A stretch of 18,117 nucleotides of DNA from a plasmid: the sequence record NZ_CP065264.1; one strand, written 5' to 3'. Made by a program: the position numbers and the translations under genes. Below the pieces are notes generated by a model, which ran no database searches, was not told the DNA's origin, and saw only the letters and a program-made list of their open reading frames with translations. Positions 2,880 through 18,117 of the stretch are shown here, piece by piece; the stretch's first letter is position 1; every line of letters starts with the position of its first letter.

Positions 2880-5800
2880 GTGACCGCGACTTGTCACAAG
2901 CTGACCGCCGGGGACGGGTACGAGTACCTGACCCGGCAGGTCGCTGCGTACGACAGCACCGAAAAGGGCCGCATGTCGCTGGCGGACTACTACCACGCCA
3001 AAGGCGAAGCGCCCGGCCGCTGGGTCGGTTCGGGGTTGAAGTACCTCAGTGACCCGGCGGGCCGATCACTGACCGACGAGGAACGCCAAGACTGGACCGT
3101 GGACGAAGGTTCGGAGGTCACGGCCGAACAGATGAAGGCACTGTTCGGTCTCGGGCAGCACCCGAACGCCGAGCAGATCGCCACGAAAGCCGTTGCCGCA
3201 GGCGTACACCCAGATGTCGCCAAGAAGATCCCTCAGCTGGGCCGCCCATTTCCGATCTACACCAAGGCATCCGAGTACCGGAAGGCATGCGCCGAGGCAT
3301 TCGGCGCCCACAATGAACACCGGGGCCAGCACGCCGCAGCGGCCATCGACGACGACGTGCGCGCACACATCCGCAGCGAGGTTGCCCGAGGAATGTTCGC
3401 CCAGCAGCACGGCCGACAACCCGATGCCCTTGAACTCACCACGTTCATCGCCGAACATTCACGCCCGGCCACCATCGCCGTGTCCGGGCACGACTGGTGC
3501 GCAAGCCCAGTCAAATCCGTCTCCACACTGTGGGCCGTGTGCGGCACCCGCGAGCGCCAGCTCATCGAACTCGCCCAGGACTTGGCCGGGCAGGGCGCGA
3601 TCCAATCCATGGAGCGCAACAGCCTCTTTACCCGCATGGGCGCCCAAGGCGTCCAGCAGCTCGACGCCACCGGATTCATCGGCACCGCCTTCACCCATCG
3701 CCAAAGCCGAGCAAATAACCCCGACCTGCACACCCATTACGCATTGAGCGCTAAGTGCCGCGCGATCGGTCCCGATGGTGTCCCCCGCTGGCTGGCCATG
3801 GATGGCCGCCCGTTCTACAAGTCGCTCGTCGCGATGTCCGAAACGTACAACTCGCTGCTTGAGGCGTACCTCATTGAATTCCTTGGTGTGCAGTTCGTGG
3901 AGCGTCCCACCGAGCCTGGCAAGCGGCCCATCCGCGAGATCGCCGGTATCTCCCCGGAACTGATGGAGTTCTGGTCGCAGCGGGCCAAGATGATCGACGA
4001 TCGGCTCGCCGAACTCACGATCAAATTTCAACGGGAAGTGGGCCGCGAGCCCACCGCCTCGGAGGCATACGACCTGTCGCAGCGCGCCACGTTGGAGACA
4101 CGGCAGGCCAAGATGGAGCCGCAGTCATTCGCCGAGCAGCGCGAGAGCTGGCACCGCGAAGCAGTCGAAGTGTTGGGCTCGGAGAAGGCCCTGGCCGAGA
4201 TGTTGACCAATACCCTTGGCCGCCAGCAGCACCGCGCACAAGAACCAGTCAGCGCCGAATGGATCGCCGACAAAGCCACCCAGTTGCTCGCCACCGTGGC
4301 CGAGTCCCGGGCCAAATGGCAGTGGGCGCACGTGCACGCCGAAGCCTGGCGCATCGCCCGTGCCGAAGGCGTTGCCCACCAACCGGACATCGCCGAGCAG
4401 CTCACGAACGCGGCGCTCGGACGCAGCATCCGCGTCGCCTCCACCGCTCTCGACGGGGAACTCAACGAGCCCGATTTCCTGCGGCGCCGCAACGGCGAAT
4501 CGGTCTACACCACGCACGGCACCGACATGTACACCTCCGCTGACATCGTGGCCGCCGAACGGCGAATCGTCGCTGCCGCGACAGAACGAGGTGCCCGCCG
4601 CCTCGATGCTGACAGCATCGATATGGCGCTACTAGAGCACGCGGCGAACAGCGACTTCGCACTCAACGCCGATCAAGCGGCCCTCGTGCGTGCGCTCGGC
4701 AGCTCCACCGCCGGAGTGCGACTCGCGCTCGCGCCCGCCGGAACCGGCAAGACCACCGCCATGTCCGTGTTGTCGCACGCATGGGCCGACAGCGGCGGAA
4801 CGGTACTCGGGCTCGCCCCCACCGCCGCAGCCGCCGAGATCCTCGGCGCAGAGATCGGCACCAACGCAGACACTCTCGCCAAGTACGTGCACTGCACCAC
4901 TCATCCCGAACATCCAGTGCCCGCATGGTTCGACCGGATCGACCACAACTCGCTCATCCTGGTCGACGAAGCGGGCATGGCCGCCACCTTGGACCTCGAT
5001 GCACTTATCGCCCATGCGCGGGGCCGCGGCGCCACCGTTGTGCTCATCGGCGACGATCAGCAGCTTGCCTCCATCAGTGCTGGCGGTGTCCTGCGCGACA
5101 TCGCCCACGTCTGCGGGGCCACCACCCTGACGACAGTGGTTCGGTTCGCTGACCCCGCCGAATCGGCCGCCAGTTTGGCACTGCGCCAGGCCGATCCGGC
5201 AGCCCTGGGCTTCTATCTGGACAACGAGCGCGTGCACATCGGCTCCGATGCGGCTGCCGCGGACATGGCCTACACCGCGTGGCGCGCCGACATCGATGCA
5301 GGCATCGACAGCATCATGCTTGCGCCCACCACCTCGACCGTCACCGAACTCAATCAACGCGCCCAGGCCGACCGCATCGCCCGCACCGGGCGCCGGGCCG
5401 GGCGAGCCAGCAGCCTGCGCGATGGAACCCGCGCACACGTCGGCGATGTCGTATTCACCCGGAAAAACGATCGCCGCCTGACAATCTCGGGCACCGATTA
5501 CGTGCGCAACCGGTACCGCTGGACCGTCCGCGAAGTACACCGCGACGGTTCGCTGACAGTGCAGCAGATCACCAAATCCACCAAGCCCGGCCGCATCGTG
5601 CGGTTGCCCTCCAGCTACACCGCCCGGCACATCACTCTCGGCTACGCCGCCACCGTGCATGCCGCCCAAGGCTTAACCACGATGCGCTGCCACCTCATCG
5701 GAGCAGCCTCCCTGACACGCCAGTTGCTATATGTGGCGATGACGCGCGGCAAGCTGGGTAACCACATCTACTTTTCCACCGCCGAACACGATCCCCACAA

Positions 5801-8624
5801 GATCATCAGCGCCAGCGCCCTGCTGCCCGAGACCGCCACCGAAATCCTCACCAAAATCCTGGAGCGCGACGGCTCTCAACACTCGGCGACCAGCGCCCAG
5901 CGTGATGCGCAGAACCCGTTCCTGCGTCTGGCACACGCCGCCGGCTACTACAGCGATGCCGTGGAATCCTGCGCCGAACACCAGCTCGGCGCCGACATCA
6001 TGGCCGCCATCGATCAGGGCGCCAATGAGCTGTATCCCCAGCTCACCGAAGCAGACGCCTGGACCGCGCTGCGCAAACACCTCGCCCTGCGCGCATTACC
6101 GGACCAGGACGCCAAAACTGCTCTTGATGTTCTGGCCGCCGCGATCACACGGCGCGAGCTCGACACCGCCGACGATCCGGCCGCTGTCCTGCACTGGCGC
6201 ATCCAGCAGCGCACCGGCACCCAAGGTCCACTCCCCTGGCTCACCGCCATCCCCGCCGAGCTGCAACAACAGCCCGACACCGCGATCTACCTGCACGCGC
6301 GCTTCTCGCGGGTCCGGGACCTCGCCGAGGAGGTACACACCGCCGCACTCGCCTGGACCTCTGACACCGCGCCCCGCTGGGCGCAGGCACTGCATGCCGC
6401 CGACCCCGTGCTTACCGCCCGCATCGCCGTCTTCCGCGCCGCGTGCGGCATCGACGACGCCGATCAGCGCCTCACCGGCCCCGACCAATACGCAGTCACC
6501 CTGCGCAGCCACCAAGCAGTGCTGATGAAGGCCGCCGCAGCGGCCCTGCCCGGGCTCGACGCAGGCCGCAGCCGCTGGACCGACGCAGTACGCCACCTTG
6601 ACCCACGACTGCCCGACGATCCCTACTGGACTCAGCTCACGCACCTGCTCGACGACATCGAGCGCGACGGCTTTGACGTGTCCCAGATCCTGGAGGCTGC
6701 CGCCACCAAGCCCCTACCTGCGGACATGCCCGCCGCGGCCCTGTGGTGGCGGGCGATGCGCGCCATCCACGGCGACACCCGACCCAGCAGCGCCGCACCC
6801 GCTGAGCTTCTTGAGCTATGGACCAGGGAGAAGAACCTCGCCGATCAGCTCGCCGAGCTTGAAACAGCCCAGGCCGAACCCACCCATTGGGGCACACCGC
6901 ACCTGGCCGCGTTCAAAGACCGCTACGGGCAACTCCTTAGCGAATACCGCCGCCAAGAACCCCACCACCGCGCCGTCACCGACGCCTACGAGCGCTGGCT
7001 GGCCGCCGACCGCGAACTCACCGCCGCCAACCGCACCACCGACCGGGAGAACCCGGCCGACACTGACGAACGCCGCGCCAGGGCCGCCGGCGCCGAACAG
7101 GCCGCCCGCGACACCCTGCACCACGCACAGCAAGAGCGCGCGCACGCCCTCGGCGGCGCCCAACCGGTCACCGACACCATGCTCACCGAACTCGTCGACG
7201 AAGCCCTCCGGGCCGATCGCCGACTACTGGAAGACACCCGAAACAGATTGCAGCGAGCCAAAACACGGGCACGTAGCGCCGAACAGCAGGCGGCGATCGA
7301 GGCTGTCAAAGACACCGGCAGAACCAGCCGCGGCGAAGAAGACGACCTCACCCAGATCCGCCTGGCCTACACCCTGCTCGAGGACGCCGCACACACCCAC
7401 GCCCGCACACCCCGGCCCAGCATCGACCAGAGCGGGCTCAGCGCCGACCAGATTGCCGTAGCCCGCGAACTCGCCCGCTCGCCGTACACCCTCAACGTGC
7501 TCACCGGCACCCCGCAGGACACCCGCGCCGTGCTGGACAGCATCCGCGCCGGAGCTGAACGCCAGCAGCGCACCGTCCACGACATCACGGCCGCCGACAC
7601 CATCGGCGCCGACGACATGCTCGACGCGATCGTCCTAGTCTCCGATGCGGACCGCTGGGAACTGCCCGCCCTGCACCGTCTCGCCGAGACTGCACGACGC
7701 GAACACGCCAAACTCATCCTGGCGGGCGATCCTCAAACAGCCGCCGCCACACCCCATTTCCGGGCACTAGCCGCCGAACTGCCCTGGACCCAGGCCGCGC
7801 ACGAACAGCGCCACGCGGCCACACCGGAAGTCGTTCTCGCATCCACCACACAAGAGGCCACCACATCAGCAATCCAGGCCGCCCAACATGATCAGGCAGC
7901 AGGTGTCGATGCCGTCATCCTCGCCGCAGGCCCGCAGCAGGCCGATGCCCTCAACACCGCAGTACACGAGCGCGGCGCGGCACGAGATCGTGTGGCCATC
8001 GGCTGGCATCACCTCGGCGTCGGCGACATCATCACCACCACCGCGGCCACCGAAACCGCAGACGGCACCGCTGTCGCTCCTGGCGGGCGCTGGACCATCA
8101 CCGAACTCGACCAGGACGCCGCGACCGCCCAGGCCATACGTCGCGACGACCCGTCCGTCACGATCACCGTGGGCGAACACACCCTCTACGAGCTCGGCTA
8201 CGCCCAAACCGCGCGCACCTATGCCGCCGGCCCGGCCGCCGACCGAATTCACCTGCCGATCGACGAGCACACCGCGGGCGCCGAACTGCACACCAGTCAC
8301 CACGCCGACACCACGCTGTACGTGGCCGCCACCAGCACCGAGGAAGCCGCCGACGTCATTGCCGCCGCCCAGGCCCGCGATACCCGGCCACGCCTCGTAC
8401 TCGATACGAAAGCCGAGGCCGCGCAGCGCAAAATCGACAACAGCGAGAAGGTATCGCCGATCGACAAACTCGCCCTGCAACTCGTCGACAAACGCGCACA
8501 GCTCAAAGCCGCCGCCACCGAGCATTACCGGCAATGGACCGCCCGCCAACAACGAGCAGCTCAAGCACGCCAACGCGCCGCCGAGCGGGGACGCTCCAAC
8601 GACGGCCCCGGCCTGTCTCTCTAA
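2880..8624 (+). CDS. traA: MobF/TrwC-family conjugative relaxase-helicase (TraA-like), about 1914 aa. It has an N-terminal HUH relaxase domain, an active RecD-like helicase, an Ala-rich coiled-coil segment and a C-terminal degenerate (vestigial) second helicase-like domain.
   Basis: Relaxase motif I is HKLTAGDGYEYLTRQVAAYD...SLADYYHAKGEAPGRWVGSGL with catalytic Tyr residues. The 3-His motif is NNPDLHTHYAL. Walker A is LAPAGTGKTT, Walker B is LILVDEAGM, followed by VVLIGDDQQL, TVHAAQGLT and LLYVAMTRGK. The track ORF begins at 2454, but everything upstream of 2874 is low-complexity and overlaps the divergent membrane-protein gene. GTG 2880 (alternative 2874) is the first start that keeps the catalytic-Tyr motif. 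Confidence 0.9.
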   Translation: MTATCHKLTAGDGYEYLTRQVAAYDSTEKGRMSLADYYHAKGEAPGRWVGSGLKYLSDPAGRSLTDEERQDWTVDEGSEVTAEQMKALFGLGQHPNAEQIATKAVAAGVHPDVAKKIPQLGRPFPIYTKASEYRKACAEAFGAHNEHRGQHAAAAIDDDVRAHIRSEVARGMFAQQHGRQPDALELTTFIAEHSRPATIAVSGHDWCASPVKSVSTLWAVCGTRERQLIELAQDLAGQGAIQSMERNSLFTRMGAQGVQQLDATGFIGTAFTHRQSRANNPDLHTHYALSAKCRAIGPDGVPRWLAMDGRPFYKSLVAMSETYNSLLEAYLIEFLGVQFVERPTEPGKRPIREIAGISPELMEFWSQRAKMIDDRLAELTIKFQREVGREPTASEAYDLSQRATLETRQAKMEPQSFAEQRESWHREAVEVLGSEKALAEMLTNTLGRQQHRAQEPVSAEWIADKATQLLATVAESRAKWQWAHVHAEAWRIARAEGVAHQPDIAEQLTNAALGRSIRVASTALDGELNEPDFLRRRNGESVYTTHGTDMYTSADIVAAERRIVAAATERGARRLDADSIDMALLEHAANSDFALNADQAALVRALGSSTAGVRLALAPAGTGKTTAMSVLSHAWADSGGTVLGLAPTAAAAEILGAEIGTNADTLAKYVHCTTHPEHPVPAWFDRIDHNSLILVDEAGMAATLDLDALIAHARGRGATVVLIGDDQQLASISAGGVLRDIAHVCGATTLTTVVRFADPAESAASLALRQADPAALGFYLDNERVHIGSDAAAADMAYTAWRADIDAGIDSIMLAPTTSTVTELNQRAQADRIARTGRRAGRASSLRDGTRAHVGDVVFTRKNDRRLTISGTDYVRNRYRWTVREVHRDGSLTVQQITKSTKPGRIVRLPSSYTARHITLGYAATVHAAQGLTTMRCHLIGAASLTRQLLYVAMTRGKLGNHIYFSTAEHDPHKIISASALLPETATEILTKILERDGSQHSATSAQRDAQNPFLRLAHAAGYYSDAVESCAEHQLGADIMAAIDQGANELYPQLTEADAWTALRKHLALRALPDQDAKTALDVLAAAITRRELDTADDPAAVLHWRIQQRTGTQGPLPWLTAIPAELQQQPDTAIYLHARFSRVRDLAEEVHTAALAWTSDTAPRWAQALHAADPVLTARIAVFRAACGIDDADQRLTGPDQYAVTLRSHQAVLMKAAAAALPGLDAGRSRWTDAVRHLDPRLPDDPYWTQLTHLLDDIERDGFDVSQILEAAATKPLPADMPAAALWWRAMRAIHGDTRPSSAAPAELLELWTREKNLADQLAELETAQAEPTHWGTPHLAAFKDRYGQLLSEYRRQEPHHRAVTDAYERWLAADRELTAANRTTDRENPADTDERRARAAGAEQAARDTLHHAQQERAHALGGAQPVTDTMLTELVDEALRADRRLLEDTRNRLQRAKTRARSAEQQAAIEAVKDTGRTSRGEEDDLTQIRLAYTLLEDAAHTHARTPRPSIDQSGLSADQIAVARELARSPYTLNVLTGTPQDTRAVLDSIRAGAERQQRTVHDITAADTIGADDMLDAIVLVSDADRWELPALHRLAETARREHAKLILAGDPQTAAATPHFRALAAELPWTQAAHEQRHAATPEVVLASTTQEATTSAIQAAQHDQAAGVDAVILAAGPQQADALNTAVHERGAARDRVAIGWHHLGVGDIITTTAATETADGTAVAPGGRWTITELDQDAATAQAIRRDDPSVTITVGEHTLYELGYAQTARTYAAGPAADRIHLPIDEHTAGAELHTSHHADTTLYVAATSTEEAADVIAAAQARDTRPRLVLDTKAEAAQRKIDNSEKVSPIDKLALQLVDKRAQLKAAATEHYRQWTARQQRAAQARQRAAERGRSNDGPGLSL

Positions 8625-9031
8625 AGACCGACAGCGCTCAGCGGGTGCGCAGACTGTGTCTTGCCGCTGATCGCCGCGTTGAAATACGCGATCGCCGCCT
8701 CGTGTAACCGATTGCAATGGACCACGGACGAACCGTCCCACTGCTCCTGCCTTTTGGACCACTCGGCCATCCGCAGCGCGACCGCCGCGCCGGGGGCGGC
8801 ATAGAAGAAATCGAACTGAGCCTGCTCTTTCCACGGCCCCGTGGGTATCGCGGCGACCATGGCGCCGGTGCTCAAGTACACCCACACCGAGGCGCCGACA
8901 TTGTTCGACTTCAAATCGAGTGCGTCAAAGGGCGCCGGCAGATCCCGATCGTTACAGGAGTGATCCAGCACAGCCCACCCGGCAGGAACCGGTTCATTCG
9001 TGTTCACCATGACACCATCATGGCCGTTCAC
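8621..9031 (-). CDS. Hypothetical 136-aa protein, last gene of the minus-strand operon. Candidate partner or immunity-type protein for the upstream 787-aa modular protein.
   Basis: GTG start at 9031 lies 16 nt after the stop of the upstream gene on the same strand. Third-position GC is consistent with coding. Trp-rich; no recognisable motif. Its 3' end converges on the relaxase stop with a 4-bp overlap. Confidence 0.45.
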   Translation of the reverse strand: MNGHDGVMVNTNEPVPAGWAVLDHSCNDRDLPAPFDALDLKSNNVGASVWVYLSTGAMVAAIPTGPWKEQAQFDFFYAAPGAAVALRMAEWSKRQEQWDGSSVVHCNRLHEAAIAYFNAAISGKTQSAHPLSAVGL

Positions 9032-9046
9032 GTGGACATCCTGTGT

Positions 9047-11410
9047 TTAGAGGCCACTGATCCTCTCGGCAGCCGCCACCGCATACGTGGCATCGGCCAG
9101 GTTCGGCTCCTCAGCGCTCAGATGCATCGCCGCCTCCAGGATCTGCGCAGAGATCCACATCGGCCGATATACGGCCTGCATCATCATCTCTACTTCGCCC
9201 GGCGGACCATACTCGCCCGCACCCGTGCGGTTAGTGGAGGCGAGCTGCTGGCGCAGGCGATGCTCACGGCGCAACTCATCGGCCAACTTCTCCGAAACAC
9301 GTTGCTGAGCACCAAGACTGGCGAAAGCATCATGGCCGCACGTGGGCAACTCAGAGCCTTCTGTCAGCGGCAACAGGCGGCGAGCGCGAAGCGCCAAATC
9401 ATCGATCACAGCCTGAGGATGATCCTTGGCCGCGCTCAGCCGCTCGTGCGCGCCGGGCTCAAGTGAATTCACGCGGTGATACCGATCAAAAGTCAGTCCT
9501 GGATCTTCGGCATTCCACGCGAACGGGCTGGCGTCTCGATCAACCCAGCACACCGGGATCTCCCGACGCTCAGCAGCAGTCGTCGAGCCCGACGTGGCCA
9601 GGCCCAGTAGAGGAGTGCCGCCCGCTGCCACGCGAGCATCGCCGTACTCAATCATCACGCGTGTCACGTCGATCCAACCGAACCAGCGCCGCAAGAAATC
9701 CAGCGGCAGGGCTGGATCCGTCAGGGCCGGAACCAACGTTCTGACGGGAATCACTGGCTGCGGTATGCAACCCCAACCGTAATTCGACACCATCAGCGTC
9801 CCTATGCCGCCGTACGGCATCTCGAACAACCCCACCGCGAACTCAACATGCCACCACTCCTGGCGACACGCATGCAACAGCTCCCACACCAACATCCGTG
9901 CCGGACCAAAATCAGGCCACCCGACTTGCTCGGCCGCACGCTCCACAGCGGCCCCGGCCGCCCCTGAACCCGCCAACAACGCACCAGGTGCGCCAGTCCC
10001 GCCACCAGGATTCGGCGGCGCAGCCGGTCCAACCGGAGCACCAGGGGAAGGAGCAGCCGCAGTGGCGCTACCGCTTCCACTTGCGCGTATATCCGACCCG
10101 AACGGTGGCAACGAACCCCCACCAGCAGCCGGGACCGCAGAAGGGCCGGGACCAACCGGCGCCACCGGAACAGGCTGCGCACCAGCACTACTCAGAGCAA
10201 CCGCAGCCGGTGTCCCACCAGCACCAGGTACTGCGCCCGGAGCGCCGAGAGGTGTCGGCGACATCGGCGGCCGAACACCCTCAGCCGGCGCCAACGGCCG
10301 CACCACAGCAGGTGCAGCAGGAGCCGAGGCGGCCGACGTGAACCCCTTTGCAAAATCCTGCACCGGCCCGCTAGGCGCTGCCGATGGTACGGCACCCAGA
10401 CGCGGAACAGACGAACCATTTCCCAAGCCGCCCAACGAATTCGACGGCTTCATGCCCGACGACAAACCACCCAGCATCGACGACCCGCTGCCTGAGCCCG
10501 CGCTAGGACTCATCCCACCCGCCAACGGCGAAGCCGGAATACCGCGTCCAGCAGCCGAACCCACACCAGGATCGGCGACACCCGGTGTCCCGGACGTTGC
10601 CCTATGTGCCGCCGATGATTCGGGCGTCGAACCGTCGGCTTGGCTTTGATCGGCCCGTCCGGAGGACTCGCCTTGAGACGTGGAGCGATGGCCGTTTTTC
10701 GCGGAGTCGCTTTCTGAAGCTGGTTCACGGCCATTGTCTCCCTCGGATGGAGGAGACATCGGTCTGTGATCGCGCCGGACTCCGCCACCTTTTTCTGTTA
10801 CCGAGTCGACCGGGTGGACTGCATTCCCGCCGTGAGGTGCAGGTGCGCCAGACCCGTTCTTACTGGCAGCTGCGCCAGTCCATACAGGCGCGGCGGCTGC
10901 CAGAGCTTCGATCTCAGCGGTGGCTTTGGCCACCGCTGCATCGACCTCTAGACCAGCGGCAGGGACTATCCTCGCGATCTCCGCGCCCAGCGCCATCGGG
11001 TTTCCCGCGAACTTCGCTTCGGCTGCTTCGATCTCGGCGTGTGCTTCCTCGTCGATACGCATGATTTCGAGCCGCAATGTCTGTTGAATCGCGCCCGCTT
11101 GAAACAGCATGGGCGATTCCTTCGCGCACCCCTCGGCCAGCTCGTTCCATAGGCCCAATTCCTGCTTATAGGCGTGCACTGAGGCCGCGGCAAAAATGCC
11201 CTTCTCCTCAGACTCGACCTCGGCGATAGCGCGTCGCACGCTCCCGGCCGCCGCCTGCGCATTTTCGTGCTCAGCGCGCCCAGCAGCAGCTAGATCACCG
11301 ATCAGGCTCGGCGGGCACTCTGGCCAGCCCTTGCGGATAATCACCTTGGAGAAACGACGGTTCGGCATCGACAGGGCCATAAAACTCACACTAAGCCCGC
11401 AGAGCCGCAC
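9047..11410 (-). CDS. 787-aa three-part protein: N-terminal alpha-helical domain (~200 aa), a ~330-aa Gly/Ser/Ala/Pro-rich disordered linker, and a ~300-aa Cys/Trp/His-containing globular C-terminal domain. Its architecture resembles ESX-associated Esp/CpnT-like secreted effectors.
   Basis: A continuous 2.36-kb frame with three distinct compositional modules. The linker is the cause of the spurious antisense ORF at 9804-10649. The C-domain contains WELLHACRQEWWHVEF, SNYGWGCIPQ and PTCGHDAF. The exact start is uncertain; GTG 11410 or ATG about 11380. Confidence 0.65.
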   Translation of the reverse strand: MRLCGLSVSFMALSMPNRRFSKVIIRKGWPECPPSLIGDLAAAGRAEHENAQAAAGSVRRAIAEVESEEKGIFAAASVHAYKQELGLWNELAEGCAKESPMLFQAGAIQQTLRLEIMRIDEEAHAEIEAAEAKFAGNPMALGAEIARIVPAAGLEVDAAVAKATAEIEALAAAAPVWTGAAASKNGSGAPAPHGGNAVHPVDSVTEKGGGVRRDHRPMSPPSEGDNGREPASESDSAKNGHRSTSQGESSGRADQSQADGSTPESSAAHRATSGTPGVADPGVGSAAGRGIPASPLAGGMSPSAGSGSGSSMLGGLSSGMKPSNSLGGLGNGSSVPRLGAVPSAAPSGPVQDFAKGFTSAASAPAAPAVVRPLAPAEGVRPPMSPTPLGAPGAVPGAGGTPAAVALSSAGAQPVPVAPVGPGPSAVPAAGGGSLPPFGSDIRASGSGSATAAAPSPGAPVGPAAPPNPGGGTGAPGALLAGSGAAGAAVERAAEQVGWPDFGPARMLVWELLHACRQEWWHVEFAVGLFEMPYGGIGTLMVSNYGWGCIPQPVIPVRTLVPALTDPALPLDFLRRWFGWIDVTRVMIEYGDARVAAGGTPLLGLATSGSTTAAERREIPVCWVDRDASPFAWNAEDPGLTFDRYHRVNSLEPGAHERLSAAKDHPQAVIDDLALRARRLLPLTEGSELPTCGHDAFASLGAQQRVSEKLADELRREHRLRQQLASTNRTGAGEYGPPGEVEMMMQAVYRPMWISAQILEAAMHLSAEEPNLADATYAVAAAERISGL

Positions 11411-11440
11411 TTTCCCGGGTCGAAATTTTGTTCGATCAAG

Positions 11441-12043
11441 CTACGGGACCACCGGCTCACCGAGCTGGCGGCAATAACCATTAATAGGGTTTCCGACCTC
11501 GGCTGAGTCGTTGAATATGTACCGCGCGTCGGCGGTCCAAAACTCATCGTGCACAACCAGATTTACCGCGACAGTTCGATCAATCATCCGGCGGCCAGCC
11601 CGATCTAGCCATCCTGAACCTTGCGCCCTAACCAGGGTATCCAGAGATCCCTTCGTGCGATCGGCCCAGCCGTTGACCCAGGAGCTATAGCGTTGGAACT
11701 CAGCACCAGTCGGTCCGTGGTCGATCACTGCCGATGGCATCATGTCGATGGTTTCGGCGAGTAACGGGCGCATCGTGCGGCACCACTGCTTGTCGGATTC
11801 CTTATTGAAGATGAAACTCTCGACAGTCGCCGACCCGGACGGAGAAGTTGATGAGGCGGCGGGTGGTGAGACATCCTTGCGAGCTGACCCGGCAATGAAG
11901 ACAGCGGCCACCGCACCGATCAACGCCGCCGCGCTCATCACCGCCGCCGCCACGACCAATCCGCGCTGGCGCGGCGGAGGCGGAGAACCTGCTGGGCCGG
12001 GCATGTAGTGTTGCGGTGCAACGTAATTCGGTGAACCGTCCAT
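11441..12043 (-). CDS. Membrane-anchored protein, 200 aa: a Pro-rich N-terminus, a single TM helix (LVVAAAVMSAAALIGAVAAVFIAG), then a ~130-aa extracytoplasmic domain.
   Basis: ATG at 12043 shares one nucleotide with the upstream gene's stop (TGATG overlap). It lies 30 nt upstream of the 787-aa gene. Confidence 0.6.
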   Translation of the reverse strand: MDGSPNYVAPQHYMPGPAGSPPPPRQRGLVVAAAVMSAAALIGAVAAVFIAGSARKDVSPPAASSTSPSGSATVESFIFNKESDKQWCRTMRPLLAETIDMMPSAVIDHGPTGAEFQRYSSWVNGWADRTKGSLDTLVRAQGSGWLDRAGRRMIDRTVAVNLVVHDEFWTADARYIFNDSAEVGNPINGYCRQLGEPVVP

Positions 12044-12690
12044 CAGATTTCCCGCACACTAGCCTGCTCGCCAGCAGCTTTCGTGTCGGCCGAATCAATC
12101 AGTGTGATCCCGCCGTGGCGACCTACAGCGTTCGACGAACCCTGCCCGCCGGCATGAGTTTTACCCGCAGCCTTAAACGCAGCGAATTTCGCCACCAAAG
12201 TACCCACCGCCGCATCAGTAGGACTGGTGCCCACAGCAGCAGGAGCACCCGAAGTATGAGCCGCATGCTCGGCAGATTCCGCTTCCGCCTTACTAGTAGC
12301 GGCCCGAGCCTTCTCCGGATCGAGCCGCACCTGCTGCCCCGAACCCCCAGGACCAGCCCCTGGAATCGAGCTGGCAGCGGGCGCAGTCGCACTCGTCGGC
12401 GAAGCTAACCCTTGAAGCATCGACAGCGGCTGCTGAATACCCGACAGCGCCGGGCTTACAGCCTGCGACAACTGGTTAGGCAACTGACCGACTTGCGAGC
12501 CGATCTCCTGGACAGGCTGCAAGAAGGTCGATGGGTCAATGCCGTTGGCGGGCAAATCAGAACCGAGGCCCGACGCATCCGCACTACCGGCGGAATCCGC
12601 AGGAGACGCACTGTGCGAGGCAGCTGCGCCAGGCTCACGCTCATCACCAAGCTCTTGTCCAGAGTGCGGATCTGGTGAAGCCGCGTTCAT
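12043..12690 (-). CDS. Low-complexity Ala/Ser/Gly/Gln-rich 215-aa protein, unknown. Contains Gln-rich repeats such as LPNQLSQAVSPALSGIQQPLSMLQGL.
   Basis: ATG at 12690 overlaps the stop of the upstream 180-aa gene (ATGA). No TM segment. Compositional bias is the only signal. Confidence 0.5.
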   Translation of the reverse strand: MNAASPDPHSGQELGDEREPGAAASHSASPADSAGSADASGLGSDLPANGIDPSTFLQPVQEIGSQVGQLPNQLSQAVSPALSGIQQPLSMLQGLASPTSATAPAASSIPGAGPGGSGQQVRLDPEKARAATSKAEAESAEHAAHTSGAPAAVGTSPTDAAVGTLVAKFAAFKAAGKTHAGGQGSSNAVGRHGGITLIDSADTKAAGEQASVREI

Positions 12691-13229
12691 AACGGCATCG
12701 TATCCCCAGGTGGAGGACTATGAGTGGGTGGATTCGGCTTCATTGCGCATATCGGGCACACAGCCAGAAACTCCTTGTGCTTGATGTCCGCCGCCTCACG
12801 GCGCTGTGCACCCATCCGCTGCGCCATACCAACGAGATCCCCGGTGCGATCGTCAAAATACGCATCACGCAACAGCCACGCCTGTTTTTCTGCAACCGGT
12901 AGGGACTGCCACTGATCAGACTTCATTACCGTCGCGGTGAATTCGCGCCGCTGGCGGGACTCCGCCCCCCGAGCCCGGATTTCGGCCTCAAGGAAATCAC
13001 GCAGATGAGTACGCCACGCATCGGCAGCAGCAGCCGCAGCCTCGATCGCATCAATTCGCTCAGCGATCGTTTTCTGCGGGTCGGATAACGCCGACGCCGT
13101 TTCGTACAGTTCCCCCAGTACATCTAGCGGCGGTACCCACCGATCGGCAGACACCACCTGCCCTTTCAAAACAGACGGCGACAAGGTCCACGGATCAAAC
13201 GGCGGATCTGGCGGCTGCGGAGTACTCAT
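12687..13229 (-). CDS. Hypothetical 180-aa protein and first gene of the minus-strand operon. It has a CPIC motif near the C-terminus.
   Basis: ATG at 13229 starts it. Its stop is coupled to the next gene through an ATGA overlap. No recognisable family. Confidence 0.55.
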   Translation of the reverse strand: MSTPQPPDPPFDPWTLSPSVLKGQVVSADRWVPPLDVLGELYETASALSDPQKTIAERIDAIEAAAAAADAWRTHLRDFLEAEIRARGAESRQRREFTATVMKSDQWQSLPVAEKQAWLLRDAYFDDRTGDLVGMAQRMGAQRREAADIKHKEFLAVCPICAMKPNPPTHSPPPGDTMPL

Positions 13230-13295
13230 ACCCGCATCGTATGCCCAGTTTCAGCCCCGTGAACGGGGTCAATTTCGCGAGGCCCGTGCGGCACT

Positions 13296-13432
13296 TCCCC
13301 TCCCCTCTGGCCCTGATTGTGCGTTGGGTGGTGGTGCTGTCAAGGCCATGCCGCTGCGCGGTCGGTCAAAGCCCGAGCCTTGACAGCACCACCACCCAAC
13401 GTGAGATCGGCCAATATGAGGGAAGGGGAAAA
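13296..13432. promoter_or_regulatory. 137-bp palindromic divergent control region. Its core is a perfect 25-bp inverted repeat (13322-13346 and 13377-13401) separated by a 30-nt loop.
   Basis: CGTTGGGTGGTGGTGCTGTCAAGGC ... GCCTTGACAGCACCACCACCCAACG. Outer arms TCCCCTCCCCT / AGGGAAGGGGA match at 10 of 11 positions. The region lies between the operon start (13229, -) and the 193-aa gene (13438, +). Confidence 0.5.
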
Positions 13433-13437
13433 ATCAG

Positions 13438-14019
13438 GTGATCCCCGATAACCAGCCTTTGCCGCCACTGATAGCTACTGTGATCAGTATGGAGCTTTCC
13501 GGTCGTTACCTGCGGCTTTTAGACACCTACGAGGAATACCTCGTGTTGCGTGACATGCTCAACAGAATCGACGAAGTATTGGTTTCCGCCGAACGCAGCA
13601 GGGTCGAGGAACGACCACTATTCACCGTGCGCCACATGCACGACCTCTATGCAGCGTCCCCGTACATCGAAGTCTCATTCGACCGCCAGCGCGAGGCCGA
13701 GCGAGCCCTGGCCGCCGCGGTGGAAACATACCGCAAAGCGTTCCACGCAGTAACCCGGGGCCGCGAAGATGTCACGAAAATTGTTGCCAAGCAAGGACTT
13801 CCCTACCCAATCGATTTAGAATCCGATTCCCGTAAGCGGCCCGCACTGTTGCCCTGGTGGCAACGCGTCGGCCGTTATCAGTGGCGCGGCGGAGAGATAT
13901 TCATCGAACGGCCAACAGGCGACAGATTCCAGCCCATGAACAGCCCAGACCCCACACAGGCCATCGAGATTGAACGCAGCGCTGGCCGCCGCGAGATCAC
14001 TTCGCAACAGCCCACCTGA
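13438..14019 (+). CDS. Hypothetical 193-aa cytoplasmic protein and first gene of the lower-GC accessory island.
   Basis: GTG at 13438 is preceded by GAGGGAAGGGGAAAAA (SD-like); the alternative start is ATG 13489. Codon third positions are GC-biased as in a real frame. No known motif. Confidence 0.5.
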   Translation: MIPDNQPLPPLIATVISMELSGRYLRLLDTYEEYLVLRDMLNRIDEVLVSAERSRVEERPLFTVRHMHDLYAASPYIEVSFDRQREAERALAAAVETYRKAFHAVTRGREDVTKIVAKQGLPYPIDLESDSRKRPALLPWWQRVGRYQWRGGEIFIERPTGDRFQPMNSPDPTQAIEIERSAGRREITSQQPT

Positions 14020-14095
14020 TCAGGCAAGCAGTGCATGGTGCGCGCTTGTCGCGCCGCGGCGAAGGTTCTGCACCCCTACGTGGTTCCCTCCGCGC

Positions 14096-14284
14096 ATGTC
14101 AGACACCACCACCATCGTCATCACAATCATCCTCGTGATCATCACCATCGTGACGATCACCGAGTTCTTCCTGTTGGCCGCCTACATCGTCTACAAGACC
14201 GGCGCCACCACAGGCATCGCCGACATCGGCCGCGCGGTGGCGGCGATCATCGCAGCCATCACCAACAACCCACCGCCGCCCTAG
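14096..14284 (+). CDS. 62-aa small membrane peptide with two predicted TM helices (ITIILVIITIVTITEFFLLAAYIVY and IADIGRAVAAIIAAI) and a C-terminal NNPPPP tail. Candidate toxin, holin-like or exclusion peptide.
   Basis: ATG at 14096. About 90% of third positions in this frame are G/C (atC gtC atC acA atC ...), as expected for a real coding frame in this replicon. The overlapping His-rich frame 14035-14706 lacks that bias. It lies in an ATC/ACC triplet-rich tract. Confidence 0.5.
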   Translation: MSDTTTIVITIILVIITIVTITEFFLLAAYIVYKTGATTGIADIGRAVAAIIAAITNNPPPP

Positions 14285-14429
14285 CTGTCCGTCTCGTTTC
14301 TAAAGATCCTGGACAGCACAAACGCTGGGCGATCGGCGATCAAAAACGCCTAGTCGTGGCGTCTCATATCTCGTCTCGCGCCGCGTGTCTCGGATCTGCC
14401 TTGTCACTGGCTCGTGAGACAGTGCGTGA
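14285..14429. promoter_or_regulatory. Candidate res (resolution) site and promoter for the serine recombinase.
   Basis: TGTC/GACA-type half-sites: CTGTCC (14285-14290) ... GGACAG (14311-14316). There are several GTCTCG/CGTCTC copies near 14291, 14356, 14369 and 14384, and an inverted GAGACAG near 14416. Tn3/gamma-delta family res subsites have TGTCYNNTA-type half-sites immediately upstream of the resolvase gene. Confidence 0.35.
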
Positions 14430-15014
14430 GTGGCAACGACACTCGGATATGCGCGAGTCAGCACAGCAGGCCAAGACCTCGATGTGCAACTGGCACAGCT
14501 CGCCAACGCCGGAGCGGACGCCGGCCGAATCTTCACCGACAAGATCTCCGGTGCTGCCGGATCACTGCGCCCTGGCCTCACGTCCCTACTGGACTACTCC
14601 CGCCCGGGTGACATCGTGGTCGTCACCGCCATCGACCGCCTCGGCCGATCGGTCGTTGAAATTACCCGAACTATCGCTGAACTGGGACAACGCGAAATCA
14701 CCTTGAAAGCCCTACGCGAAGGAATCGATACCTCCTCCCCCACCGGCCGCGCCGTCGCCGCGATCATGGCCACGCTCGCCGAACTCGAACTCGAACTCGG
14801 CAGGGAACGGCGAGCCGCCTCCCGACAAGCTCGACGTGAGCGCCACCTACCGGCCACCAAGCCCCCCAAACTCAGCCTTGAACGGCAAGAACAACTGCGT
14901 CGCCTTGCAGCTACAGGTGAACCCGTACGCGAGCTAGCGGCCGCTTTCGGAATCGGCCGCGCCACGGCCTACCGCTACCTAGCTCAACACGAGGAATCGC
15001 TGAAGAGTCCGTGA
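14430..15014 (+). CDS. Serine recombinase of the small resolvase/invertase type, with a C-terminal HTH.
   Basis: The N-terminus MATTLGYARVSTAGQDLDVQ carries the catalytic-Ser motif GYARVST..QD. The C-terminal HTH is ELAAAFGIGRATAYRYL. GTG start at 14430; 194 aa. Confidence 0.9.
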   Translation: MATTLGYARVSTAGQDLDVQLAQLANAGADAGRIFTDKISGAAGSLRPGLTSLLDYSRPGDIVVVTAIDRLGRSVVEITRTIAELGQREITLKALREGIDTSSPTGRAVAAIMATLAELELELGRERRAASRQARRERHLPATKPPKLSLERQEQLRRLAATGEPVRELAAAFGIGRATAYRYLAQHEESLKSP

Positions 15015-15202
15015 GAGGCGAAGTCCTCCAAAGACTCCAACAGCACCGCCATGGAAGCTGCGCACTCACGTACGAGTGACAGCAGTTCGGTGTCACCGCG
15101 TGCGAGCGCTTCGGCCTCGGCTTTAGCGGCCTCTATGCAGAAGTTCCGCCGGGCTAAAGGCAGCCATCCGTACTGTCGGTCCACCGCCTGCCCACCACTC
15201 AT
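14984..15202 (-). CDS. Possible small 72-aa helical protein downstream of abi and antisense to the last 31 nt of the resolvase gene. Speculative.
   Basis: ATG start with about 70% third-position GC and a plausible helical sequence (ELLSLVRECAASMAVLLESLEDF). No family match and no clear RBS. Confidence 0.2.
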   Translation of the reverse strand: MSGGQAVDRQYGWLPLARRNFCIEAAKAEAEALARGDTELLSLVRECAASMAVLLESLEDFASHGLFSDSSC

Positions 15203-15376
15203 GAAGTCAGCATATACGCATCTCAGTATTTACTGCAATAGGGTGAACGGGCCAGATGTCATCAATGGCACCAAGGTCATGAAGTCGCCAACTTGCCTAC
15301 GGTCCCCTCTCAGGTACGGAGGAAGGCGCAGAACCAGGTGTGGGCGCTTGGGATGCGTATGTACGCAAATACGGAT

Positions 15377-16138
15377 TTACGGATTACTTGGGCGCGCTGC
15401 CAATATTGCGCGTACGCGGCTGCGGTTTTGCGCCCAGTCCCGCAGGTCATGGCTGATGGAGTTCAGCAGCGGCAGAAGCACCCGATCATGTAGGTGAGCG
15501 ACATCGATGTAGAGCAGGGAATCCATATGCGAAACCTTGTTACGGAGTTTCCGCAGGTCGCGAACTTTGTTCCCGGTGCCATAGCCTCTCGGGTCGTTCG
15601 TTGCGTTGGGAAACCCGCGATGTAAGCACTGACGCCATAGATCGCGGCGCGCTTGCAAGTTGCCGAGATCCTGAACCGGGTTCCCCCGGCCGTCGACCCA
15701 ACGGGCGTCGAATTTCTCCGGCAGCATCCGTGCCCAGGTCCCGAACATAATGTGCGCGACCAGATCATCATGATTCGGTGCGTGACCTCGGCGTGGATGT
15801 CCGTGCACACGTTCTTTCTGTGAAAGGTCGGCCGCCCCGTACAACCGGTGGCGTGTAGTCGAGAACACCTCGGCTACAGACAGATAGGGAAGAGCTGAGA
15901 CGTGATCGATCCATTCCTCAGTGCCGCAGTGAGTCACCGACCATGACCGCAGCTCGACATCGATCGCATGCCTAACCGCCACTTCGGCGATACCTAGTAG
16001 CTCTTGAAGTGCCGATGTCAGTTCGATGTTCCACTCGTAGAGCGCCAGCGCGTCAGCGTCAGAACCGCCCGCGCCGCGGTAATGGCTCAGCCGCGCACGA
16101 TGGAGGTGCTTAAGAACCTCGCCCGGCTCGACAGTCAT
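15377..16138 (-). CDS. Abi-like abortive-infection protein, Abi_2 / AbiD-AbiF family.
   Basis: The N-terminal signature LSHYRGAGGSDADALALYEWNIELTSALQELLGIAEVAVRHAIDVEL matches the conserved R..Y..D...AL.LY.WN..L..A....L...EV.LRNAI block of Abi_2 proteins. 253 aa; lower GC than the backbone. Confidence 0.7.
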   Translation of the reverse strand: MTVEPGEVLKHLHRARLSHYRGAGGSDADALALYEWNIELTSALQELLGIAEVAVRHAIDVELRSWSVTHCGTEEWIDHVSALPYLSVAEVFSTTRHRLYGAADLSQKERVHGHPRRGHAPNHDDLVAHIMFGTWARMLPEKFDARWVDGRGNPVQDLGNLQARRDLWRQCLHRGFPNATNDPRGYGTGNKVRDLRKLRNKVSHMDSLLYIDVAHLHDRVLLPLLNSISHDLRDWAQNRSRVRAILAARPSNP

Positions 16139-16164
16139 GGTTGGTCACTGTGCCACAGAAACAG

Positions 16165-16197
16165 AGAAGCCCCTCGGGACAGGCCCGAGAGGCTTCT
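16165..16197 (-). terminator. Stem-loop AGAAGCCCCTCGGG-acagg-CCCGAGAGGCTTCT, candidate terminator for the parA-parG operon just upstream of abi.
   Basis: A 14-bp stem with one mismatch and a 5-nt loop. On the minus strand it is followed by TCTGTTTCTGTGG (U-rich). It lies 140 nt downstream of the parG-like stop. Confidence 0.35.
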
Positions 16198-16244
16198 TCA
16201 CAAACAACCAGACGAAGCTGATTGCATCGTGAGGACAGATTAGC

Positions 16245-16289
16245 ACAATTCCACACAATTCCGCAGGGCTGCGGAAACCTGCGGAATTG
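16245..16289. promoter_or_regulatory. Tandem 9-bp direct repeat CACAATTCC x2 overlapping a perfect 12-bp inverted repeat CAATTCCGCAGG / CCTGCGGAATTG with a 10-nt spacer. Candidate operator or centromere-like site.
   Basis: Read directly from the sequence. It lies in the abi upstream and par downstream intergenic region. Confidence 0.3.
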
Positions 16290-16337
16290 CCAGCTCGACT
16301 CGGTTATCCGTATATCAGTATTTACGTGTATACGTAT

Positions 16338-16655
16338 CTACGTACGTTCTGAGAGTACCTGTGTAATTGCCTCGGCCAGCGCTTTGTCTGCGAGCAGCCG
16401 GTCGACGAGGGCGGAAAGCACCTCCTGGCCGGTCACCCGAGCCAAGCCCAGTCGCTCCGCAGTATCGCCTTGCCACACGTCCAAAGCTCGGTGTTGTGTC
16501 GGAGTGAGATCAACAGTGCGCCGCACGTTCTTCTGCCGCACTGCCGCTACCGGAGCAGCGGTCTCAACAGCCGGAGAGACGGCCGGAGCCGCAGGCTTCG
16601 GCGCCTTCCGAATCCGTTCTGCGTTCGCCTTAATCTTGTCCGCAGCCGTGCTCAT
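16338..16655 (-). CDS. Small 105-aa partition protein, ParG/omega-like ribbon-helix-helix centromere-binding partner of ParA.
   Basis: It lies immediately downstream of parA in the same orientation. It has a flexible basic N-terminus and then RRTVDLTPTQHRALDVWQGDTAERLGLARVTGQEVLSALVDRLL, which fits the RHH pattern (beta-strand, H..L, G.S...V...LV). AGGAGG lies 8 nt upstream of ATG 16655. Confidence 0.6.
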   Translation of the reverse strand: MSTAADKIKANAERIRKAPKPAAPAVSPAVETAAPVAAVRQKNVRRTVDLTPTQHRALDVWQGDTAERLGLARVTGQEVLSALVDRLLADKALAEAITQVLSERT

Positions 16656-16717
16656 CAGTCTGACCTCCTATTTCGTCACGCAGTATATACGCATCTACGG
16701 AGATCAGTCGGTACGGA

Positions 16718-17377
16718 TTACTGCGCGTCCGGAGCTAATAGCTCAGCCACAATTTCCCCGTATGCCGTACCCGCGGCATCGACAATGGGTGATCCGTAAG
16801 CCTGGGCGAACCGCTCCAGCCGCGCCACAGTCGGCCCCAGAACCCGCACCCCATCGCCGGCAACCAACTCACGGTAAGCCGTCGTCGACGCGGCATTGGA
16901 CACCGTTCGCGTGAACACCACACATAAAGCTGGGGGAGTGTCGTCAACCAGCGCCGCCGAATCCTCAACCAACTCACGGATCGCTGGCAGTCGCGCGTAC
17001 TCCATACCCGTGGGAGCCATGGGCACCACAACATGTGTCGCCAATCGGATCGCCGACCCGACCACACCCCGCCGCTCCTTCATCGGAGGGGTGTCAATCA
17101 CCACCGCGTCGTACCGATCACCGGCAATACCAGGCAGCTTCCGATGTAAATCCGTCACCGGCAGCCCGATAACAGGAACACTCCAACCGCCGGCCTCCGA
17201 CCACGACAACAGCGACTCGTTTTCGCCATCCGCATCAACTCCCAGCGCCGATAACCCCGCCTCGGCTAACGCATGCAGCATGAACGCCGCAGTCGTCGTC
17301 TTTGTCGAGCCGCCCTTGAGATTTGCCACCACGATCGTCAAACCAGAAGAACCCACCAACGCATCCTCTCCGTACAT
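16718..17377 (-). CDS. parA: ParA/Soj-family partition ATPase, small type-Ib form, 219 aa.
   Basis: Deviant Walker A LTIVVANLKGGSTKTTTA; Walker A' and Walker B-like VVIDTPP; 219 aa; followed by the small RHH gene. Confidence 0.9.
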   Translation of the reverse strand: MYGEDALVGSSGLTIVVANLKGGSTKTTTAAFMLHALAEAGLSALGVDADGENESLLSWSEAGGWSVPVIGLPVTDLHRKLPGIAGDRYDAVVIDTPPMKERRGVVGSAIRLATHVVVPMAPTGMEYARLPAIRELVEDSAALVDDTPPALCVVFTRTVSNAASTTAYRELVAGDGVRVLGPTVARLERFAQAYGSPIVDAAGTAYGEIVAELLAPDAQ

Positions 17378-17434
17378 ACGGATATGAGCTATTCAGTAAC
17401 TCAGCATAGAGCCATATGAGACCAAATGTGCAAC

Positions 17435-17452
17435 TACTGATATACGTATATC
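17435..17452. promoter_or_regulatory. 14-bp perfect palindrome GATATACGTATATC inside a ~24-bp imperfect palindrome, 60 nt upstream of parA in the parA / RHH-gene divergent region. Candidate par operator or centromere.
   Basis: Read directly from the sequence. The 12-mer CGTATATCAGTA (minus-strand sense here) recurs in opposite plus-strand orientation at 16309-16320 downstream of parG. Confidence 0.4.
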
Positions 17453-17580
17453 CGTACTTACTTATTCAAAGTGGAACTTACTCGGGAGCGCAAAAGTGCC
17501 AATCAGATAAGGCGGACCAGTGAAAAACCCTGGCGTGTCGCTACGGGTTCGTAACTGTTAGTTCGCGAATACTGGCGGCT

Positions 17581-17985
17581 ATGGCACAACGGCACAAGGG
17601 CAAGCGGCAGCAGATCGCGGCCCTAACTGATCCTCGGGTCCGGGCCGTCATGGTCGGACTCGCCACGCGACACGGCATTTCGGTCTCGCAGTACGTCGCA
17701 GACCTATTAGCAGTGGATGTCGGCCGACCTGACCTCGTTCGCGACCTCAAGCAGGCGACGATCCCCATCCTTGAAGATCTCGAAGTCGTCGTTGATGACG
17801 AACGGCTCATCGCTCCACGTGTGCATGTAGATGTCTATCAAGCGATCGCAGAGCGGGCCGGTAAGCGCCGGATGGGGCAGTACGTCGCCCGGGTATGTGA
17901 GGCCCACGCCAACGGCCACGCACTGCCTATCGACCACGCAACCGCTAACGAAAATCAGGAGGAATTACTACTGACCAGCGCATAG
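17581..17985 (+). CDS. 134-aa putative DNA-binding protein with two tandem ribbon-helix-helix-like motifs (CopG/Arc/omega-like regulator).
   Basis: Two internally repeated units: IAALTDPRVRAVMVGLATRHGISVSQYVADLL and IAPRVHVDVYQAIAERAGKRRMGQYVARVCEAH. Both follow the RHH pattern of beta-strand, helix A, G/S turn, helix B, with a shared SQYVA / GQYVA signature. Divergent from parA. Confidence 0.45.
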   Translation: MAQRHKGKRQQIAALTDPRVRAVMVGLATRHGISVSQYVADLLAVDVGRPDLVRDLKQATIPILEDLEVVVDDERLIAPRVHVDVYQAIAERAGKRRMGQYVARVCEAHANGHALPIDHATANENQEELLLTSA

Positions 17986-18047
17986 CCGCTGCGGATTCGC
18001 TTGCCGCAGAACATTTTTCAGTGCGCAGAACTTTGCTCAGAAAGCAT

Positions 18048-18077
18048 GAAACCCCCCTAGAAAACTAGGAGGGTTTC
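18048..18077 (+). terminator. Stem-loop GAAACCCCCCTAG-aaaa-CTAGGAGGGTTTC, 13-bp stem with one mismatch. Candidate factor-independent terminator for the RHH gene.
   Basis: Lies 60 nt after stop 17985 in an AT-richer tail. There is no strong U-tract, which is common in actinobacterial terminators. Confidence 0.35.
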
Positions 18078-18117
18078 TACGGAACGAAGTACCACCTTCG
18101 CTCCAAAGTTCTACGTC

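Follow-up and report, generated by a model that had tools for sequence, protein, structure and literature searches.

A mobile leader-and-peptide cassette of mycobacterial plasmids encodes a predicted single-pass membrane protein, tentatively a stand-alone effector

The plasmid type I toxins, among them Hok of hok/sok, Fst of par, TxpA and BsrG, are proteins of 30-60 amino acids (aa) with one N-terminal hydrophobic helix; they lie in plasmid stability regions, have no protein antitoxin and a narrow taxonomic range, and their translation is tightly restrained. To our knowledge, no type I toxin family has been described in Actinobacteria. Passages of a 2017 survey state that most type I toxin families are confined to a single phylum, with examples in Proteobacteria and Firmicutes (PMC5367252). 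Here we analyze an 18,117-bp plasmid sequence (NZ_CP065264.1), called the window in its whole length, and in particular a gene at 14096-14284 on its + strand that encodes a 62-aa membrane peptide. The peptide resembles the type I toxins in the respects just named, and at 62 residues it falls within the size by which they are recognized (under about 70 aa, with a membrane-spanning helix); its distant homologues may add a further likeness, a long 5' untranslated region (UTR) predicted to be structured, with the Shine-Dalgarno sequence paired. It differs from them in having no antisense promoter motif or Rfam RNA and in that its conservation is concentrated in a motif on the cytoplasmic side. Searches through Pfam, NCBIfam and PADLOC gave no homology to the described toxin families Hok/Gef, Fst, Ldr, Ibs and TxpA.

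Two other groups of genes invite comparison. KdpF, AcrZ and MgtS are like the peptide in size and in their single transmembrane (TM) helix, and they act by helix packing on a partner; they are chromosomal and lie in or near the operon of their target, whereas the peptide family is found on mobile elements with no linked target. The 'moron' genes of Mycobacteroides abscessus prophages and plasmids, as treated in parts of PMC8092301, resemble both the peptide and the gene upstream of it (176 aa as revised below), in that these too behave as independently acquired accessory genes. The likeness extends to the prophage relatives of the 176-aa gene, each of which stands alone in reverse orientation, its ATG preceded at 7 nt by a -10 hexamer. 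Neither family is mentioned in the passages of PMC8092301, PMC12995706, PMC5367252 and PMC10730256 that a term search retrieved. The peptide, itself uncharacterized, belongs to the wide group of small membrane proteins encoded on plasmids.

The open reading frame (ORF) of the peptide runs from ATG 14096 to TAG 14284, and its 62 codons translate exactly as quoted in an earlier account made from the DNA letters alone (the sequence-only reading). That account had taken near-uniform G or C at third codon positions as the mark of the real frame, and 58 of the 63 codons do end in G or C; of the thirteen main ORFs compared in the window, this one has the highest third-position G+C content (0.92), the other twelve ranging from 0.57 to 0.79. 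The His-rich string that it had noticed in a second frame is also there, as the +2 frame gives HVRHHHHRHHNHPRDHHHRDDHR, and belongs to a 223-codon ORF (14035-14706) that overlaps the resolvase gene out of frame. Comparison of the window with ten homologues over a 35-codon core (Nei-Gojobori) gave ratios of nonsynonymous to synonymous substitution (dN/dS) of 0.08-0.26 in the peptide frame only. The two remaining frames, the His-rich one included, gave values mostly above 1 (0.5-6), with no defined ratio where dS is 0. Purifying selection therefore acts on the peptide frame but not on the His-rich one, so that the substitution pattern, which the sequence-only reading had named as a possible refutation, upheld its choice of frame. 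Together with the exclusively in-frame indels described below, these comparisons give solid grounds for regarding 14096-14284 as a genuine protein-coding gene. The Prokaryotic Genome Annotation Pipeline (PGAP) lists it as a hypothetical protein in pGD42-2 and pGD69B-2, and in RefSeq both the 176-aa gene and the peptide gene already stand as hypothetical proteins.

A word-seeded search for relatives of the peptide returned 36 clusters, and an exhaustive HMMER search of 1.84 billion representatives gave 42 family members (50% identity) of 47-107 aa. The named sources are Mycobacteroides, Mycolicibacterium and Mycobacterium only, and 185,579 species-representative genomes held two matches. No Pfam family was matched by the 32 members searched, even at E values up to 1; the window peptide had no match in NCBIfam, PHROGs or PADLOC, and the PDB yielded nothing by sequence profile or by a Foldseek search with the structural model. 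A phage origin was considered and rejected: tblastn against 50,697 phage records gave no match, and the only viral hit was one IMG/VR contig, which resembles a pGD54-type element.

In the alignments, the peptide begins with a variable Ile/Thr/Val-rich hydrophobic segment of about 19-27 residues with in-frame indels, followed by a near-invariant block, [FY]xLxA[YF]IVx[KR]TGxTxG[IL]xD[ILV]GxAVAxI[IV]xA (YIVxKTGxTxGIADIGRAVAxIIxA). The conserved core spans F24-T56 and reads YIVYKTGATTGIADIGRAVAAIIAAIT; T35 and G40 are shared by every family member without exception, and V32, G36, T38, G45 and A54 are conserved at 90% or more. The block opens with a juxtamembrane turn, Y-I-V-x-K/R-T-G-x-T-x-G, and continues as a 15-residue amphipathic helix, I-A-D-I-G-R-A-V-A-x-I-I-x-A, in which an Ile/Val face stands against an Ala/Gly face bearing the invariant Asp43 and the nearly invariant Arg46. 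AlphaFold, given a 37-sequence alignment, modeled a helix at residues 2-35, a turn and a short helix at 41-55, with a mean predicted local distance difference test score (pLDDT) of 83. The summed Hessa insertion energy, a position-independent measure, is negative only within residues ~4-32, and every 19-residue window over the C-terminal part costs +6 kcal/mol or worse; the hydrophobic moment of helix 2 is about 0.5. The energies and the modeled helices therefore point to one TM helix plus an interfacial helix, not to the two TM segments of the sequence-only reading, and the prediction of a single-pass membrane protein with one N-terminal TM helix is solid.

The peptide ends in NNPPPP, a PPPP tail being largely a feature of the Mycobacteroides clade, and Pro-Pro-Pro(-Pro) before the stop is found throughout that clade (window 14270-14284), with subclade P0041 also ending in PPP. 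C-terminal polyproline slows elongation and termination, and here it may limit or couple expression of the peptide. In four family members (P0042, P0046, P0062 and P0070) the C-terminal half diverges from the family within or just before helix 2, that of P0070 switching to an Arg/His-rich reading. These sequences look frameshifted, with natural inactivation and assembly error equally possible. Separately, a small ORF in L010 (5115-5318, minus strand), divergent from the peptide homologue there, encodes a two-helix membrane protein of 67 aa (...IIGATTGALTYL...); the two share a GATTG string, which may be a coincidence.

The family was found in 11 distinct gene contexts on mycobacterial plasmids and integrated elements, which is a minimum. 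The first is that of the window, pGD69B-2 and pGD42-2, the second that of pGD19 and the third the pGD54 type; the fourth is L026, the fifth L015 and L016, the sixth L025, the seventh L014 and L027, the eighth L010 and L011, the ninth L012, L009 and L022, the tenth L013, and the eleventh L017, L018, L023 and L024. Nucleotide homology across contexts starts at ~14042, ~20 nt past the stop of the 176-aa gene, and in pGD19, pGD54 and L014 it ends at or just past the peptide stop. Ahead of the peptide ATG it covers a leader of ~55 bp (14042-14095, + strand), conserved in alignments of the window, pGD69B-2, pGD19, pGD54, L005 and L014 and containing the palindrome CGCCGCGGCG; the DNA upstream of the leader is unrelated among the same six. 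These borders therefore define the mobile unit as the leader plus the peptide ORF, and the case from comparative sequence for an autonomous cassette is solid.

An all-against-all BLAST of the upstream and downstream neighbors found no conserved protein partner of the peptide. A resolvase lies within about 6 kb of the peptide in 9 of the 11 contexts; the resolvases of the window, L022, L018 and L025 are 73-93% identical, at peptide identities of ~60% where measured (L018 and L022). ParA is near the cassette in several contexts, and addiction or defense genes come and go around it: zeta toxin, VbhA, NYN, ImmA/IrrE with a helix-turn-helix protein, ribbon-helix-helix-YfbU and DUF4145, as well as a weak GNAT-like match and a PIN-like ORF identified by eye. 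A position within the resolvase/ParA stretch, where such genes gather, is common to nearly all contexts, and this placement in the backbone and defense region of the plasmid is well established. The pGD54-type contexts carry a GH19 gene 2-3 kb from the peptide on the other strand. A holin function was considered and rejected, as no lysin turned up among the scanned ORFs of the window and the peptide has no phage homologue. The deletion that gave rise to the 9.5-kb pGD42-2 spared the peptide gene, and the peptide is present in plasmid clusters pA, pC, pD and pF, which passages of PMC8092301 place in one common RepA incompatibility group.

Expression signals differ between the clades. No Shine-Dalgarno sequence precedes ATG 14096 in the window, where TTCCCT occupies positions -12 to -7; pGD19, with no same-strand gene upstream, has a canonical TACCTT at the equivalent position, one base further upstream. 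A check of the leader by eye for ECF, SigF and SigH consensus sequences gave no convincing match. The window form is without the 48-nt segment that encodes MPQERDP...KPKM in the N-terminal extension of the pGD54 type, and therefore the leader-proximal ATG must be its start codon. Folding of the whole mRNA in the window clade gave a z-score of only -2.2. In the distant clade, the start is preceded by a strong Shine-Dalgarno sequence and by a leader that is conserved, and in L010, L012 and L013 a TANNNT hexamer stands ~170-190 nt upstream of the start of the homologue. In the 5' UTR of this clade, RNAalifold predicts three hairpins (L010 5915-6015, L012 5975-6075, L013, L017, L018, L022 and L023), of which the first varies in its loop and the second contains a compensatory AU-to-GC change, while the third pairs the Shine-Dalgarno GGAG within CUCC-N4-GGAG.

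Taking the architecture of the peptide and its neighborhood together, we tentatively favor a membrane effector of toxin/addiction or abortive type that stands alone, is weakly expressed and works in the interest of the plasmid, a reading we hold to be possible rather than probable. The peptide would insert N-out/C-in, because basic residues follow the TM helix, and the conserved helix on the cytoplasmic face would either self-associate through its small-residue face or bind a partner in the membrane. The peptide would act alone, most likely as a membrane-targeting toxin of the addiction or abortive type. Its synthesis in the window plasmid would be kept low by the missing Shine-Dalgarno sequence, the non-canonical TTCCCT at the -10 position and the Pro-Pro-Pro-Pro before the stop, and equivalent control in the distant homologues would come from the long 5' UTR with its three hairpins, the last pairing with the Shine-Dalgarno sequence. 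The frameshifted relatives would fit recurrent inactivation of a costly gene.

Several observations weigh against such an effector. A scan of both strands of 13823-14658 found no TANNNT, so the peptide gene has no canonical promoter and no recognizable antisense promoter is nearby. Nor do the homologues hold a conserved TANNNT for an antisense RNA, a non-canonical or trans-encoded RNA being beyond the reach of a motif scan, and an Rfam search returned nothing. The leader hairpins of the distant clade come from 7 sequences of about 4 lineages and are weak evidence. The strongest constraint falls on a specific juxtamembrane motif and not on bulk hydrophobicity, a pattern that generic membrane damage explains no better than a specific protein-protein interaction would. 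The location in addiction and defense regions is only guilt by association, and topology is ambiguous for the pGD54-type forms with their 16-residue charged N-terminal extension. What speaks most against a classical type I module is that conservation centers on the motif and that an antisense promoter is missing.

The same pattern of constraint leads to the alternative that survives best, which we nevertheless think unlikely: a benign small regulatory membrane protein that tunes a host membrane complex (a transporter, a sensor kinase or an ESX component) through the invariant juxtamembrane helix and, as KdpF, AcrZ or MgtS do, brings an advantage to plasmid or host without toxicity. Such a protein would explain why a specific motif is the most constrained part while the TM helix drifts; an Ala/Gly face of this sort typically occurs where helices pack tightly, and there is neither an antitoxin-like partner nor an antisense promoter motif. 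Small membrane proteins such as KdpF are known in mycobacteria, as noted in passages of PMC10730256. However, the gene is confined to mobile elements amid addiction and defense genes, the family is rare in species-representative genomes (the two matches given above), and no candidate target is linked to the peptide gene.

A role in phage defense is less likely still. The peptide could be an accessory or effector of the Abi_2/PD-T4-5-like gene, or a superinfection-exclusion protein in its own right. Homologous Abi_2-like genes lie near the peptide in 4 of the 11 contexts, directly adjacent in two of them and in variable orientation: in L025 the two genes are convergent with a 45-bp gap, and in L026 the Abi gene is upstream with a 96-bp gap. 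The Abi-like gene of the window is 27-71% identical to those beside the peptide homologues in L022, L025 and L026, and the pGD54-type elements L004, L020 and L021 retain pieces of that gene upstream of the peptide. Against this association, orientation and spacing vary, and seven contexts have no Abi_2-like gene within the fetched stretch; the phage records gave no peptide match. Abi_2-type systems and PD-T4-5 have been described as single-gene systems. The plasmid distributions can be read both ways: Abi genes are reported in passages of PMC8092301 for pA, pC, pD, pF and pGD25-3, and the peptide is present in the first four, but pB plasmids, which according to the same passages have Abi genes, gave no peptide match.

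The sequence-only reading had instead joined the peptide to the cytoplasmic protein of 193 aa encoded upstream, as a sensor plus membrane effector, and a pair of this kind could serve in defense or as a toxin-antitoxin module. The two genes do share a strand, the 76 nt that separate them contain no terminator-like site, and both are kept in pGD42-2. The pair is rejected because the upstream gene is present in only 1 of the 11 peptide contexts (the first) and its prophage relatives stand alone; furthermore, the conserved border of the cassette falls between the two genes, and the neighbors in the other contexts are unrelated to the upstream gene and mostly to one another. The distribution thus largely refutes the two-gene model, to which we give very little credence. 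Equally, nothing was found in favor of entry exclusion, another function proposed for the peptide by the earlier account; the plasmids carry a relaxase and are predicted to be mobilizable, not conjugative, in passages of Dedrick et al. 2021 (PMC8092301).

The upstream gene itself was read as 193 codons from GTG 13438 to the stop at 14019 on the + strand; that ORF exists, but its start is most probably ATG 13489, which gives a soluble protein of 176 aa (13489-14019). Four observations argue for this start: a 469-bp insertion directly after the GTG, the divergence of the 48 nt that follow, the alignment of the prophage homologues and the spacing of a -10-like hexamer. The insertion, in pGD69B-2 and pGD69A-2, lies exactly after GTG 13438-13440 (window 13440/13441; L001 3240-3710). 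In comparison with pGD69B-2, the 48 nt from the GTG to ATG 13489 show 9/48 differences, whereas the 176-aa gene shows 18/531, distributed 5/0/13 over the codon positions, plus one in-frame codon deletion. The prophage homologues, prophiGD43A-5 gp67 and prophiT37-1 gp60, match at 33-34% identity along their full length, and their residue 1 aligns with M18 of the 193-aa ORF. The hexamer, TACTGT (13476-13481, + strand, of TANNNT form), stands 7 nt 5' of ATG 13489 and is kept in pGD69B-2 despite a differing 7-nt spacer; the prophage homologues have TAGGGT, 7 nt and ATG. This spacing corresponds to the mycobacterial leaderless geometry, so that the 176-aa gene is probably carried on a leaderless mRNA, a form common in mycobacteria (Shell et al. 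2015, as cited in passages of PMC10730256).

The 176-aa family consists of 4 clusters only, and every source that names an organism is M. abscessus. The protein had no match in Pfam, NCBIfam, PHROGs or PADLOC, and a sequence search of the PDB was empty; it has no hydrophobic segment, its top Kyte-Doolittle 19-mer scoring 0.39. A single-sequence AlphaFold model (pLDDT 42) was unusable and was set aside. Both prophage homologues (L028 4001-4570 and L029 4001-4570) are lone genes on the strand opposite to all their neighbors, with no peptide gene after either, a layout suggestive of a lysogen-expressed 'moron'. By its distribution, the 176-aa gene belongs to a small family of its own on plasmids and prophages, with no conserved peptide partner.

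The last proposal of the earlier account concerned the ATC/ACC-rich tract (14105-14161, + strand), which encodes the membrane-spanning part and was suspected of slippage and phase variation. The tract does contain a run of ACC triplets, but otherwise Tandem Repeats Finder detected only a weak, imperfect period-15 repeat (3.6 copies, 66% matches, score 45), with direct-repeat families at spacings of 15, 21 and 33 nt. Length polymorphism among relatives, which had been anticipated, is present but in multiples of 3 only: all tract indels are in frame, as in the 3-nt ACC loss of pGD69B-2 and the IIM expansion of P0013. The tract contained neither homopolymers nor short repeats whose unit length is other than a multiple of 3. 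Since the repeat units and the indels are multiples of 3, the tract cannot be a frame-shifting on/off switch, and what the alignments indicate is in-frame length variation of the membrane anchor. A contingency locus that switches the gene on and off, or between the peptide and His-rich frames, accordingly merits next to no belief, its short direct repeats and length polymorphism notwithstanding, as the 15-, 21- and 33-nt units and the ACC run keep the frame and dN/dS in the other frames is mostly above 1.

Just 5' of the 176-aa gene lies a very strong palindrome (13295-13430), with perfect 25-nt arms (13322-13346 and 13377-13401) within 13-nt outer arms; folded as DNA it reaches -55.5 kcal/mol, a z-score of -10.5. 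Each inner arm contains TTGACA. A scan for intrinsic terminators and sigma-70 promoters around the genes had its sole match here, a minus-strand promoter-like site inside the hairpin (TTGACA, 16 nt, CACAAT) that faces the leftward operon. The M. avium plasmid NZ_CP076861.1 carries, in an unannotated part, a copy of 13336-13427 at 83% identity. The palindrome may serve as operator, oriT or terminator. As for the 469-bp insertion, in pGD69B-2 it encodes a 121-aa minus-strand gene with no Pfam match; a relationship to the genes divergent from the prophage homologues was considered and dropped, as there was no similarity.

Downstream of the peptide, the intergenic region before the resolvase (14285-14429) holds five GTCTC/GAGAC motifs against 0.23 expected from the window-wide density. 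Among them is TGTCTC-N24-GAGACA, which we take to resemble Tn3/gamma-delta res half-sites, and the spacer is conserved in pGD19 along with the resolvase. It is probably the res or the autoregulatory/operator region of the resolvase. The sequence-only reading was right about the two genes that follow: the first is a serine recombinase (14430-15014, + strand; Pfam Resolvase at 2.3e-35, plus HTH_7), and the second a 253-aa Abi-like gene (15377-16138, minus strand; PADLOC PD-T4-5 at 3.5e-11), homologous to genes with weak or faint precomputed Abi_2 matches. The lower GC content that it ascribed to an island around them is real; the island is not, the low GC extending over the whole maintenance/accessory half of the plasmid, about 11000-18117.

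The window is most likely one complete circular plasmid of 18,117 bp, of a Mycobacteroides abscessus type. It further contains a 2056-codon ORF (2454-8624), whose counterpart in pGD42-2 is annotated as a MobF relaxase, the leftward operon (9047-13229) and ParA (16718-17377, minus strand). pGD69B-2 is 95% identical to it, and pGD42-2 is 100% identical from position 13411 onward. The latter, a 9,547-bp plasmid of cluster pA, is a simple deletion derivative of the window plasmid that has lost ~8.6 kb (window 4842-13410), between the hexamers GAGATC at 4836-4841 and 13403-13408; the deletion cuts the relaxase gene short and joins it to the GTG-extended ORF. One end of it lies beside the 13295-13430 hairpin, and an origin at an oriT nic site was considered and rejected, as the junction is plain GAGATC microhomology. 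Over the whole window, TANNNT hexamers number 59, where dinucleotide-preserving shuffles contain 142 +/- 11. Hexamers of the -10-like form are strongly depleted, in part because TAA and TAG are avoided in frame.

In practical terms the chief outcome is a negative one, in that the picture of a sensor plus a two-TM effector under phase variation fails against related sequences. A bolder positive claim would be that the cassette represents the first type I-like addiction module with a membrane toxin in Actinobacteria, controlled by RNA or translation without a protein antitoxin, with the leader as control element and the TGxTxG-IADIGRAV helix as a new membrane-active motif; we consider this improbable. 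If true, such a module would stabilize the small plasmids of IncMabI type in M. abscessus and its mycobacterial relatives. Clinical isolates of M. abscessus commonly carry plasmids, yet hardly any work has addressed how these are maintained or what defense functions they encode. Should the peptide prove to be a toxin or an exclusion factor, it would represent a new small-protein family, possibly the first type I-like module in mycobacteria, and a candidate stability or defense determinant for a whole plasmid incompatibility group.

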